Origin: an uncultured Gammaproteobacteria bacterium
Lineage (GTDB): Bacteria; Pseudomonadota; Gammaproteobacteria; CAWCPV01
Assembly: GCA_963797555.1 (NCBI GenBank)
Contig: CAWCPV010000010.1
Location: 1 to 64,000, forward strand
DNA length: 64,000 nucleotides
Direction: 5' to 3'
Part shown: positions 11,403 through 15,430 of the stretch, piece after piece
Layout of the letters: the number at the start of each line of letters is the position of its first letter
Position numbering within the stretch: the stretch's first letter is position 1
Translations under genes and position numbers: made by a program
Notes under the pieces: generated by a model
Databases searched by the model: none
What the model saw: the letters and a program-made list of their open reading frames with translations, nothing else
Told to the model about the DNA's origin: nothing

Positions 11403-11935
11403 TTTAGGACCTCCGCGGGTAGTTACCGCATCGAACTACCCTATAGCCTAAGTATAGGCGAGATACCCGACTTCTTCCGTCGGGTACCGCCACCCTGTCG
11501 GCCTAGCGCGTCACCCCCGAACGCCCCTGGCGGCAGCAGCCACGGCCGGAGTTGAGCTGGTCACCGTTCCAAGATCGCGGGCTTGCCATGGACGGTTCAC
11601 GGTGCGCCAGCCTCGGGTGCGGGGCGGAAAGAGGGTTCGCTGTGGGGCATTGCGCGCCGCACCCCTGGGCGGAGAGCGTTTCCTTGAGCGGACGCTCTTT
11701 GCTCTTCCCAGAGGCCCTCGTCTATCCGGCCCACGATGAGCGGGCCGGACGAGTCTCCGGCATCACGCCCTATCGCCTAACCGGGGCTTTGTCGACGAGA
11801 GCTGCAGCGACGCTGCCGAAGCCGTTGCCGCCGGGCTCCGTCGATAGACTCTCCTCGCTTAACGTGAAAGAAGCCGGTTTTTGGGCGTGACGGAGCCTGG
11901 CCGATGAGGGCCATAGGAGGGAGGGGGTGAAGGGT

Positions 11936-13157
11936 TCAGGCGGCGGCTGGCAGGAAGCCGTAGCGGCTGAGGGCCTTGATCCAGCGTGGGGCGTTGCGTT
12001 TCACAAATAGGGCTTCATAGTCAGTGGCCGAATCCCGGTAGTGTTGGCCGCGCGAGAGCATGCAGAAGATGATACGCAACATCTTGTGGGCCAGAGCGAT
12101 GATGGCTCGTTTGCGGCCGCGGCGCACCACCAGAGTCTGGAGCTTCGTCTGCAAGGCGCAGCGGGTACGGCTTGCGGCATGGGCGAACTCGCACAGCAGA
12201 CGACGCACATAGGGGTTGCCCTTGCGGGTGCGCCCCGATTGGCGCTTGCCGGCCGACTCGTGGTTGCCGGGGCAGATACCCACCCAGGAAGCGAGCCGCT
12301 CGGCATGACCGAAGGCGCTCATGTCGCTACCGATTTCCACCAGCAGCATGGCGGCACCGATGACATTGACCCCTGGTAGGGTCTGCAACAACAGCAGGCT
12401 GTTGGCCTCCTCCTTCAGGCCTTCGAGCAAGCGAGCATCGAAGCGGGCGATGCGGGCTTCGAGCTCCTCGATGTGGCGCATCAATTCATCGAGGACGAAG
12501 CGATGAGACTCGGTCAGGTCCCCCTGCAGGGCATCGAGCAGCTCCTCGCGGCTCGCCTTCAGCCGGCGGCTGGCCAGGGGGAGGACCTCGTGGGCAGCAG
12601 CCCCCTGGATGAGGGCTTTCAGCATGGCACGGGCCGACTGGCCGTGGATATCGCTCACCACCACCCCCAGGCGGATGCCACCATCGGTGAGCACCTTGTG
12701 CAGCCGGTTCTTCTCCGAGGCAGCCAAGCCCACGAGCTTCTGTCGCTGCCGGGCGATCAGGCGCAGCTCGCGCAGTTTGGCCTTCGGCACGAAGGAGGCG
12801 CGCAACAGAGCGGCGCGAGCCAACATGGCCAGCCACTGGGCATCGCCGATGTCGGTCTTGCGTCCCGGGACCTGCTTGACGTGGCGGGCGTTGACCACCT
12901 TGGCTTGGATGCCGTGCGCCTTCTAGGGCTGCGTAAGGACTTTTCCAGTAAATGCCGGTGCTCTCCATGACCACCTCCTCCGGGCGAAATCCCGCGCACC
13001 ACTCCGCGAACGCCCGGCGGTCTTTCTTGAAGGCACCGAATTGGCGTTGCTCGATGTAGACTTGGCCGTCGGCCTCCTCAAGGATGGCACAGGCGGTCAC
13101 TTGCCCCTGATGCACATCCAGACCGATGACACGCTTGAAGATCGCTACCAGTTCCAT
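11936..13157 (-). CDS. IS110 DEDD recombinase/transposase, +1 frameshift near 12919
   Basis: GLDVH, MESTGIYW, KTDIGDAQW (DEDD RuvC-like); LPGV..EIG..ICPGNHESAGK (Tnp20 serine); GGGAG RBS. Confidence 0.95.
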
Positions 13158-13187
13158 GTCGTCTCCCGTCGCAATACACTCAAGAGA

Positions 13188-13361
13188 TGGGAGACGGCGG
13201 GTGCCGGACCGAGTGAGCCTGAAGGCGGCAAGCCGCCGACGGCCTGTTTAACGTGCGCTCTGTAGGGAAGCAATCCGGGGTACGAGTCGGTCCGGCGGGT
13301 CACGTTAGGTTGCGGGGTCGAGCCGCCAAAAACTTGCGCGACCTCTTCCCGCCGTCTCCCA
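13188..13361 (-). ncRNA. Putative IS110 bridge RNA
   Basis: Perfect 14-bp closing stem (13188-13201/13348-13361), 10-bp stem (13203-13212/13287-13296), and two internal-loop domains, one containing the element-end sequence CACGTTAA. Confidence 0.7.
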
Positions 13362-13431
13362 CCCCACAGCTTCTTTCATCCTCTGGGGTGGCGCCAGACG
13401 CAATGATCGTTAGTTAGGACTACGGATGGCG

Positions 13432-14208
13432 TCAGGTATGCACGTTTGCGGCGCGCGCGAGCGGGTCTTGGCGGTAGAACGCCCGCAGCTCGCCGTACAC
13501 GTCGGGGAACTCCGCGGCCAGTCGGGCGGGCGCATCGAAGAAGGTCTCGGTGAGGACCGCGAAGAACTCCGCCGGGTCCGTCGCCCCGTAAGCGTCCACC
13601 GCGGTCGGCAGACCGCGAGCGACCTGTGTCCGCAGGCTTTCGTATGCCTGCGCGAACACACGGGTCCAACGACCGACATCCATTTCCCGGTGCAGCGCAG
13701 GAAACCCGTTGGCCGGGCCGTTCAGCATGTCCAGTTTATGTGCGAACTCGTGGAGCACGACATTGTAACCTTGGCCGGGAGAGTCCAAATCCTCCCTGAC
13801 CTCCTCCCACGACAGGATGACCGGCCCCCGCAGCCACGCTTCGCCGGAGAGTGCACCCACCTCCTCGTGGACCACCCCGGCCTCGTCGCGGAAGCGATGA
13901 CGCGCCGAAAAGCCTGCCGGATACACCAGGACCTCCACCCAGCCGTCGTAGTAATCCAGTCCCAGCCGCAGGACCAAAAGGCACGCCTGGACGCCGATCA
14001 CCACGCGCATCAGCGGGCTCACCTCCAGGCCGGCTGCGCCCTGAAACACCTTCTCGTGCAGGAAGATCACCAGCAGGTCATGGAGCATTCCCCGCTCCTC
14101 GGAGTCGAGTCCACTCACGAGCGGAACGTTGCGCAGTGTCGCCTGCCACAGCTCCGCGGGCAGTCGGTCGCGGCGTAGCCAGCGCCTGCGGCGCCATGCG
14201 CGAAACAT
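13432..14208 (-). CDS. M90 family zinc peptidase (MtfA-like)
   Basis: GEAWLRGPVILSW, NVVLHEFAHKLD, DAYGATDPAEFFAV. Confidence 0.92.
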   Translation of the reverse strand: MFRAWRRRRWLRRDRLPAELWQATLRNVPLVSGLDSEERGMLHDLLVIFLHEKVFQGAAGLEVSPLMRVVIGVQACLLVLRLGLDYYDGWVEVLVYPAGFSARHRFRDEAGVVHEEVGALSGEAWLRGPVILSWEEVREDLDSPGQGYNVVLHEFAHKLDMLNGPANGFPALHREMDVGRWTRVFAQAYESLRTQVARGLPTAVDAYGATDPAEFFAVLTETFFDAPARLAAEFPDVYGELRAFYRQDPLARAANVHT

Positions 14209-14218
14209 GGCCACTCGC

Positions 14219-15430
14219 TCAGTCGGTCCGCAGGCCCAGGATCAAGTCCATGACGTTGGCGCCGGTGGGCCCGGTGGTCAAGAGATCCCCGGAGGCGGCC
14301 AGGAACGTACCGGCGTCAGCCGCCTCGAGACAACGTGCGGCACTAAGTCCTGCACCCTCGCCCCGAGCCACTGTGTCGCCGTCCACCAGAGCCCCAGCAT
14401 CCCGCGTGGGTCCGTCGGTTCCGTCCGTGCCGCCGGCAAGCAGGACGACCTCACGGCATTCGCGCAACCCGAGGGCCGCGGACAGCGCCAGGTGCTGGCA
14501 GCGCCCGCCCCGTCCGGGTTCGAGCGGAAGGCGCACGGTGGTCTCCGCACTCCATACGTCGAGACCCACCGAGCCTCCCCGCAGATCCTGGCTCAACCGC
14601 ATCCCGGTCGCCGCTGCGTCCTCCGTCAGGACCGCGTCGTGCACGCGCACCCTATACCCTAGGCGCCGACCCGCCTCTGCTGCCGCCCGCCGCGCATCGA
14701 TCGAACGCGCAACGATATGCGTCTCCACGTTAACCGCTGGCTGGTCGCCCGGCGGCGCACCCGCGGCGAGGAGGGCCAGCACCCAGTCCGGAAGCACCAT
14801 TTCCTCCGCGCGCAACGTATCGAACGGCGGTACCAGCAGCCCGCCGCCGATGACGGCGGGGTCGTCCGCGGGCACATCGGACATGAGGAGGTTCAGGGCT
14901 GGACGCCCCTCCAGGAAGAACGCCAGTCGCCCCCCTTTGATCAGGGAGAGAGAGCCGCGCACCCGGTTCACGGCGTGGATATCCAGCCCCGAGCCCAAGA
15001 GCCAGCGATTGACGCGCTGCAGGTCGGACAGGACCACGCCATCCGGCAGCGACTCCACCAGGGCGGAGGTGCCGCCGGAGATCAGAAACAGGAAATGGGC
15101 ATCGGAGGGGGCCGCCCGCAGGAATGCCTTCAGGGCACTGCCGGCTGCGAGACTGCGCCCGTCCGGAACGGGATGACCCGCCTCCAGACAGGTCGGACCT
15201 GGAAGGCGCGTGCAGTGACCGGTCTTCGTGATCACCAGCGTGGCCGCCACCGAGCCTCCGAGGGTGTCCGTGGCCCCCTGCATCATGGCCGCAGCGGCTT
15301 TGCCGACGGCTACGACGTGCCAGGGATGCCCGGCCGCGCGCTTTTGCAGGTATCGAGCGACGCACTCGCGACCGTGCACTGCCCTCACGGCGGCGCCAAA
15401 GATCTCGGCCAAGTGACTACGGGTATCCAA
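14219..15430 (-). CDS. Glycerate 2-kinase (DUF4147/MOFRL)
   Basis: GKAAAAM, AGHPVPD, LISGGTSAL, IKGGRL, SDV, GTDGTDGPT, TGPTGANVMD. Confidence 0.92.
   Translation of the reverse strand: MDTRSHLAEIFGAAVRAVHGRECVARYLQKRAAGHPWHVVAVGKAAAAMMQGATDTLGGSVAATLVITKTGHCTRLPGPTCLEAGHPVPDGRSLAAGSALKAFLRAAPSDAHFLFLISGGTSALVESLPDGVVLSDLQRVNRWLLGSGLDIHAVNRVRGSLSLIKGGRLAFFLEGRPALNLLMSDVPADDPAVIGGGLLVPPFDTLRAEEMVLPDWVLALLAAGAPPGDQPAVNVETHIVARSIDARRAAAEAGRRLGYRVRVHDAVLTEDAAATGMRLSQDLRGGSVGLDVWSAETTVRLPLEPGRGGRCQHLALSAALGLRECREVVLLAGGTDGTDGPTRDAGALVDGDTVARGEGAGLSAARCLEAADAGTFLAASGDLLTTGPTGANVMDLILGLRTD

Follow-up and report, generated by a model that had tools for sequence, protein, structure and literature searches.

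What does the non-coding left end of an IS110-family insertion sequence encode, and which DNA would its product recognise? The element in question lies in the first 64,000 nucleotides of contig CAWCPV010000010.1 from an uncultured Gammaproteobacteria bacterium, the stretch analysed here as a whole and called the window. Bridge RNAs are actively being developed for genome writing, and what is known of their rules was learned from the IS621/ISCro4 clade. An earlier reading of the window from its letters (the original prediction) had placed a bridge-RNA gene in this left end, and the present comparison bears it out: the fold covaries in 31 homologues and the loops covary with the DNA across 130 loci. 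The region is very probably the bridge (seek) RNA gene of the element, read as in the two-module model proposed below. Both RNA and element belong to a kind already known; the layout is a variant, target specificity is judged very low, and the system is not a strong tool candidate. The parts of the element are the following.

11859 to 13413, minus strand: whole IS110-family element, 1555 bp, delimited by copies with common ends
13158 to 13413, minus strand: non-coding left end, taken as the bridge-RNA gene, ahead of the transposase start codon (ATG at 13157), conserved in 130 loci and with its structure supported by covariation
11936 to 13157, minus strand: IS110-family DEDD transposase gene in two frames, 13157 to about 12922 and about 12920 to 11936, with PF01548 and PF02371

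The limits of the element were set by its copies. A search of its own genome with positions 11800-13450 as the query gave 34 matches, the full-length ones ending at the equivalents of 11859 and 13413, and the DNA flanking these copies is unrelated right up to both positions. Contigs from soil runs X1 and X2 break at the same two points, and one loose contig end at 13413 in the soil runs continues into the flank of another copy. Homologues have the ends CTAACG.. (left) and ..CACGTTAA (right) in common. The non-coding regions measure 256 nt at the left end and 77 nt at the right end. The ends and core of the element, which the original prediction had proposed to fix from homologous elements and empty sites, are now set and usable for annotation. 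In the proposed model, C13413 would be derived from the target, the TA cores would be 13412-13411 and 11861-11860, and A11859 would be ambiguous, coming from donor or target. No empty site was obtained from the class-level relatives compared, in which the flank matches were weak and not syntenic, and no joint of an empty site or a circle was seen among the soil-run contigs. In three relatives (L085, L166, and L197), right end and left end abut with a single TA (RE-TA-LE), and in L101 a second copy of the element begins 3 nt past the first; all four may be circles, tandems or assembly wrap-arounds.

Relatives were gathered from two sources. A scan of genome contigs gave 288 relatives, 79 loci of which were fetched (72-81% protein identity), from Aromatoleum, Accumulibacter, Acidithiobacillus, Nitrosomonas, Methylomarinum and others. 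Seeding a metagenome scan with locus L080 gave 199 relatives, 80 loci of which were returned. Of these, 71 genome loci and 54 metagenome loci could be parsed, which with 5 copies from the genome itself make up the parsed set of 130. Eight genome loci were left out, four as regular-expression mis-hits (L041, L052, L077, and L107) and four without a recognisable left end (L051, L058, L059, and L068), as were 26 metagenome loci, 20 with too little upstream DNA and 6 that failed the checks on TA or left end. Tests on the left flank exclude L085 and L166, and those on the right flank L101 and L197, where the flank is the end of another copy. A comparison of DNA positions with RNA columns by plain mutual information mostly reflected clade structure, and position-specific tests with permutation by class were used in its place. 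RT1 and RT2 denote the first and second base right of TA in the target, and RD1-3 the first three bases of the element.

The fold of the left end consists of a closing stem and two domains. The perfect 14-bp closing stem and the strings of domains 1 and 2 described in the original prediction are all present at their coordinates.

13348 to 13361, minus strand: 5' arm of the closing stem, 14 bp, perfect complement of 13188-13201
13188 to 13201, minus strand: 3' arm of the closing stem, TGGGAGACGGCGGG, exact reverse complement of 13348-13361
13298 to 13343, minus strand: domain 1, the target-binding loop, with outer stem GGUCGC (13338-13343)/GUGACC (13298-13303) and inner hairpin 13312-13327
13204 to 13295, minus strand: domain 2, the donor-binding multiloop, with outer stem 13287-13295 paired to 13204-13212, the string GGAUUGC, and hairpins B and C
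13256 to 13272, minus strand: hairpin B, conserved, new with respect to the original prediction
within 13216 to 13244, minus strand: hairpin C, GGCGGC/GCCGCC, supported by covariation

Taken alone, the single-sequence fold is modest, with a minimum free energy of -109.6 kcal/mol (z -2.21) that 6 of 200 shuffles equal; the fold is accepted because of comparative covariation. RNAalifold applied to 31 representative left ends returned 49 pairs, 20 of them with compensatory changes. When a structure of 54 pairs was specified for the 31 homologues, 93.3% of cells were paired, against 39-45% with the partners slid by 1-3 columns, and both sides had changed in 21 of the 54 pairs. None of 500 shuffles matched the observed value on four of five measures, and one did so for further pair types. 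The supported helices are the closing stem, the stem and hairpin of domain 1, the outer stem of domain 2, and hairpins B and C. The closing stem (helix 2) has 92.9% of cells paired and changes on both sides in 7 of 11 pairs. Pairing reaches 97.6% and 98.7% in helices 3 and 4 of domain 1, and 95.1%, 100% and 96.4% in helices 5, 7 and 8 of domain 2, which also show compensatory changes.

The same region could act as DNA or as a 5' untranslated region, supplying recombinase binding sites, a promoter or translational control, with the loops being an internal copy of the terminal site that guides nothing. Two features are in keeping with such a role. The first ~58 nt, including CATTGC, CCACCCC and ATGAAAGA, are conserved in sequence in the absence of a supported RNA helix, and the 5' side of the donor-binding loop is invariant. 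On the other hand, seven helices keep their pairing through compensatory changes, which DNA binding sites do not need. The evidence from the loops, given below, bears on this alternative as well. Near the left tip, CCACCCC (13385-13391) and CAT(T/G)G (13400-13404) are nearly invariant and lie outside every supported helix; a role as a protein-binding site or as part of a promoter is possible.

The donor module was examined against the right end of the element, where the half-site and its proposed guide are as follows.

13246 to 13255, minus strand: donor guide CACGU-UA-AAC, CACGUUAAAC, with the sense of the right end plus TA, beginning one base 3' of hairpin B
11860 to 11866, minus strand: right end CACGT plus TA, serving as left-donor half-site for the donor guide, supported by copies and by guide covariation

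The match of CACGTTAA between 13248-13255 and the right end at 11859-11866, pointed out in the original prediction, is present; the string has three matches in the window where 0.35 are expected, and 1 of 100 shuffles also has three. Its third occurrence, at 14726-14733 on the plus strand, is outside the element and probably due to chance. That domain 2 reads the donor, as had been predicted, is supported by the relatives. Across 18 unique combinations of guide and right end, the segment CAC(G/A)(U/C)-UA tracks the right end: of 90 cells in the last 5 nt, 82 are identical, a level reached by 0 of 5000 shuffles. For each of the right-end haplotypes CACGT, CACAT, CACGC, CACAC, CATGT and CACAG, there is a guide that matches exactly or nearly. 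Copies that have decayed, among them C9 (81% identical), depart from this match. At 49 of 109 sites, RT2 agrees with the tail of the donor guide (p 0.002); farther out there is no signal.

The target module was examined in the same manner against the flanks. Its two sides would contact opposite strands.

13303 to 13311, minus strand: 3' side of the target loop, AACCUAACG, A-ACC-UA-ACG, in the same sense as the left flank, TA and element bases 1-3, with proposed pairing to the bottom strand
13328 to 13337, minus strand: 5' side of the target loop, GCAAGUUUUU (plus G13327), with proposed top-strand pairing to TA and the next 1-2 bases to the right (G.T, U-A, U-A)

At 124 unique sites, representing 37 guide classes, the target guide agrees with the left flank in 124 of 124 cases at position -1, 92 of 123 at -2 and 59 of 121 at -3, values that none of 4000 class permutations reached at any of the three positions. 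Overall, class permutation gave no left-flank signal from -4 outward. The proposal that domain 1 reads the target is upheld by these left-flank matches of the three bases before UA. Past the same UA, the next three bases equal RD1-3 in 124 of 130 loci, the variants ACU (24), AGU (5), ACC (1) and ACA (1) included. On the 5' side of the hairpin, the adjacent U is complementary to RT1, which is mostly A, in 106 of 114 sites, a count that none of 4000 class shuffles reached, and RT2 pairs with the 5' side weakly, in 47 of 109 sites (p 0.015). Of the 8 unique sites of a family with a 5' side ending in ..AUCGUG, 7 are TA-CG targets. Pairing of the U-tract past RT2 was rejected, as no signal was found at RT3-RT6, and so was the extension of the target-binding loop as a guide for RT1-3, for which there was no class-specific signal. 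The covariation between RNA and DNA that the original prediction set as its check is present for donor and target, with loop segments tracking the right end and the left flank. The fold, and which DNA positions covary with which RNA positions, are direct observations on these alignments.

These results weigh on the possibility of a DNA-level or untranslated-region role for the left end, since a terminal binding site cannot explain why the bases of the target loop covary with host flanks at 124 different sites. The protein family is moreover experimentally RNA-guided in the systems described in PMC11208160 and PMC11187229. A purely DNA-level or untranslated role is considered very unlikely, and a bridge-RNA gene is the reading retained here.

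Target recognition would span about NNC-TA-A(R), judging from these positions. Specificity would be low because only about three target bases and the core are specified by the guide, and a target guide with only three programmable bases accounts for the scattered insertion sites. In a subfamily comprising L123-L130, L151, L069 and L080, the target is the much more specific CCACCC-TA-CG, with matching changes on both sides of the target loop; this subfamily would be an instance of natural retargeting within the element family.

The core was expected, from the original prediction, to be TAA or AA. TA is found at both junctions, in both 3'-side guides, and at the single-TA RE-TA-LE junctions (L085, L166, and L197). 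Immediately right of TA, the donor has A, as do most targets. In 15 parsed loci (5 from the genome set, 10 from the metagenome set), the left junction reads TA-A and the right junction TA-C or TA-T, so that the exchanged core is TA, not TAA or AA. Nine of these 15 loci belong to the L080-type family, in which RT is CG in 7 of 8 unique sites. The bases to the left of TA differ between donor and target, each segregating to the correct junction. A full-text literature search pairing 'IS110' with 'TA core', in this wording alone, found no paper.

From these observations the following mechanism is proposed. The RNA would form a closing stem holding two modules. In module 1, the strand 3' of the hairpin (ACC-UA-ACG) would pair with the bottom strand over the left flank, TA and the first three bases of the element, and the U-rich strand 5' of the hairpin (..UUUG) with the top strand over TA and the next one or two bases. 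In the multiloop of module 2, the strand 3' of hairpin B (CACGU-UA-AAC) would read the right end, having the sense of its last five bases and TA. The DEDD/Ser recombinase would then exchange strands at the common TA between a circular RE-TA-LE junction and an NNC-TA-A(R) target. The window copy, if it has moved, would have been mobilised in trans, its recombinase being frameshifted. By analogy with IS621 and ISEc21, we infer that the RNA is made, bound by the recombinase and paired as proposed.

Several results weigh against this reading of the RNA. The related sequences are not independent, and class permutation lessens the effect of kinship and does not remove it. The left flank of the window copy itself matches its guide at -1 and -3 and mismatches it at -2. 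In the L080-type family, the tail of the donor-binding loop is AGA or AGC, which mismatches RT = CG. In a divergent metagenome clade (L155-L202, right end ..TCTTCCACAT), RT2 is C in about half of the sites, unlike in other clades, and this frequent C appears to fit none of the proposed pairings. No RNA column was found to covary with bases 4-6 of the element, and no convincing top-strand guide was seen for the left end of the element as donor, the 5' side of the donor-binding loop (..GGAUUG) being invariant. The single-sequence fold also has a 5' stem-loop, which was discarded as a conserved element, with 69.8% of cells paired and changes on both sides in 1 of 6 pairs. A scan of positions 11500-13800 against Rfam 15, with E up to 10, gave four chance-level matches and no relevant family. 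A search for sigma-70-like promoters found no site in the integrated context.

The layout was then compared with those of known systems. As described for IS621, the bottom-strand guides, namely the left target guide (LTG, nt 50-58) and the left donor guide (LDG, nt 123-130), lie 5' of the stem-loop of each loop (PMC11208158), while the top-strand guides and handshake bases are 3', and it is the element's right end that serves as left donor (PMC11208158, PMC11208160). The present element resembles IS621 in having its RNA at the left end, ahead of a DEDD recombinase that carries PF01548 and PF02371, and in that two modules, one for target and one for donor, would each read both DNA partners around a shared 2-nt core. 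As with the handshake guides of IS621, the core-adjacent bases in one loop match the other DNA partner. It differs in that the bottom-strand (same-sense) guides are 3' of the hairpin, the core is TA instead of CT, the target guide has 3 nt plus the core instead of 7 plus 2, two hairpins sit in the multiloop that forms the donor module, and the counterpart of the top-strand guide for the left end of the element is missing from the pairings found. The recombinase is also longer (406 residues instead of 326-328) and distantly related (E 8.6e-8). Geometrically, the layout is that of IS621 read on the opposite DNA polarity, the 3' side carrying the right guide, the core and the handshake bases.

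With the seekRNA of ISEc21, which is of the IS110 type, the element shares a non-coding region upstream of the gene and short guide matches to both target strands (PMC11187229). The order of the matches differs: the top-strand match is here 5' of the bottom-strand match, whereas in ISEc21, as published, it is 3' (PMC11187229). IS1111-type seekRNAs are described as having the top-strand match 5' of the bottom-strand match (PMC11187229; review table in PMC13604230), and the present RNA agrees in this respect with ISEc11, ISPa11 and ISKpn4. The original prediction had presented a guide on the 3' side as a departure from IS621. This placement stands, as both same-sense guides are 3' of the hairpin, but it is not unprecedented, since the order has been reported for IS1111-type seekRNAs (PMC11187229). 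Both bottom-strand guides begin one base 3' of a hairpin, with UA six bases after it (C-AACC-UA-ACG and C-ACGU-UA-AAC).

Other traits are divided between the two groups. As in many IS1111 orthologues, the donor-binding bases are in a multiloop (PMC11208160). Unlike IS1111, in which the RNA gene is downstream of the transposase (PMC11187229), the RNA gene is here upstream, and the protein has 406 residues where those of IS1111 are given 330-350 (PMC11187229); a length of 406 residues fits the subgroup of IS110 proper as delineated in PMC11187229. A 2026 preprint reports 86 bridge-RNA covariance models, many departing from IS621, with 12-40 programmable nucleotides by its account. The present RNA family may well be among these models.

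The family also shows a further, strongly covarying complementarity, between the following arms.

13369 to 13378, minus strand: left-end arm UGAAAGAAGC, element nt 36-45, with covarying complementarity to the subterminal right end
11865 to 11874, minus strand: right-end arm GCTTCTTTCA, 6-15 nt from TA, reverse complement of the left-end arm, abutting the donor half-site

Across 120 loci with 65 unique arm pairs, this end-to-end complementarity of 8-10 nt is paired in 578 of 650 cells (0 of 5000 shuffles). Positions 1-7 of the arm are Watson-Crick in at least 62 of the 65 unique pairs, and every change at position 3 is compensated (48 A-T, 17 G-C). At position 8, all four Watson-Crick types occur, and 11 pairs have G in the left arm opposite T, compared with 1 that is A.C or C.A. 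This asymmetry between G.T and A.C suggests an RNA-type pairing.

The complementarity might equally be a subterminal inverted repeat at the level of DNA, bound by the recombinase as in IS1111 and involving no RNA pairing. IS1111 elements are described as having subterminal inverted repeats of 7-17 bp, and IS110 elements of 2-3 bp, flanking the donor site (PMC11208160), and the right-end arm does abut the donor half-site. The complementarity of at least 7 nt recalls the IS1111 group. Its arms are placed asymmetrically, the left one beginning 33 nt past the left TA core and the right one 3 bases from the right TA core, a point against an ordinary repeat. The bias at position 8 (11 G-T versus 1 A.C or C.A) is likewise expected of a one-strand, RNA-type wobble and not of a duplex site. 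With these points on both sides, a DNA-level repeat is given a chance only a little short of even. A broader idea is possible but doubtful: a widespread lineage would link the IS110 and IS1111 types, combining an upstream RNA with an IS1111-like order of guides, a multiloop and a repeat (IS1111 being taken from published descriptions), and the complementarity would serve as an extra donor-recognition guide or as a junction-specific RNA hairpin.

The transposase was identified in both frames of the window copy, with PF01548 at E 6.1e-7 and 1.8e-13 and PF02371 at E 1.9e-22. An intact homologue of 406 residues, from locus L031, scored 290.8 bits (cutoff 140) with the NCBIfam model NF033542, 'IS110 family RNA-guided transposase', and matched the solved transposase structures of ISCro4 (E 1.5e-9) and IS621 (E 8.6e-8). 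The translated string GICPGNHESAG fits the catalytic-serine motif G--P----S(G) as defined in PMC11187229, with S-A in place of S-G. In a comparison with plasmid-borne IS110 elements, from almost all of which the protein is remote, one match had 66.5% identity, and 29 sampled evenly from the remaining 3656 had 35% or less. The two frames of the window copy are separated at a single point.

12917 to 12926, minus strand: frameshift context CTAGAAGGCG, one base longer than in the open allele

Five copies, including that of the window (C10, with C14a, C5, C14b, and C16), have the one-base-longer CTAGAAGG in common and a transposase frameshifted at about 12921. Two others, C3a and C3b, read CTAGAGGCG (CTAGAGG) and are open over 435 and 428 residues. 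One contig of run X4 has one base fewer at 12921, which is the open allele, and covers the left end to 13395; other contigs of runs X3 and X4 carry the frameshift allele of the window. Because its transposase is frameshifted, the window copy is predicted to be non-autonomous.

Could it then be an inert relic? The RNA gene would be intact, yet unexpressed or unused, and the identical copies would have arisen by duplication of larger segments instead of transposition. The frameshift in all five copies fits such a state, as does the lack of a promoter-like site in the integrated context, and the natural promoter of IS621 is described as forming only at the circle junction (PMC11208158). The bridge RNA of IS621, however, works in trans (PMC11208160), and open alleles exist, both in the same genome (C3a and C3b) and in run X4, where one contig combines the open allele with a full left end. 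Three frameshifted copies are 99.9-100% identical and sit at different, unrelated sites, with unrelated flanks up to the ends, which indicates separate insertions. Near-identical frameshifted copies at unrelated sites point to recent mobilisation in trans, and an inert relic is considered unlikely.

The suggestion that the locus offers a candidate new programmable recombinase was not supported in that form: the transposase is frameshifted, the guides specify about 3 target bases plus the core, and the kind is already known, as the name of NF033542 states. The interest of the element is in what it says of the machinery: the guides can be swapped in order, the core can be a palindromic TA, the target guide can have only three programmable bases, and the donor module can be a multiloop.

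The open copies have features of their own. C3a and C3b correspond to G000:C3:589091-590468 and G000:C3:306514-307863 (with G000:C3:303877-304052). In both, the bridge-RNA gene is interrupted at about element nt 171-179, and the defects are complementary, the open copies having a cut RNA gene and the frameshifted copies an intact one. C3b is split by an insertion of 2.46 kb with open reading frames of 526 and 354 residues, which resemble IstA and IstB of IS21 by reading of the translations. Just upstream in C3a is a frame resembling TnpA of the IS200/IS605 type, a label also given by reading of the translation.

A cultured test system is on offer in Aromatoleum anaerobium LuFRes1. Its seven parsed loci have identical guide segments and element ends, and L031, the one LuFRes1 locus translated, has the open reading frame of 406 residues.

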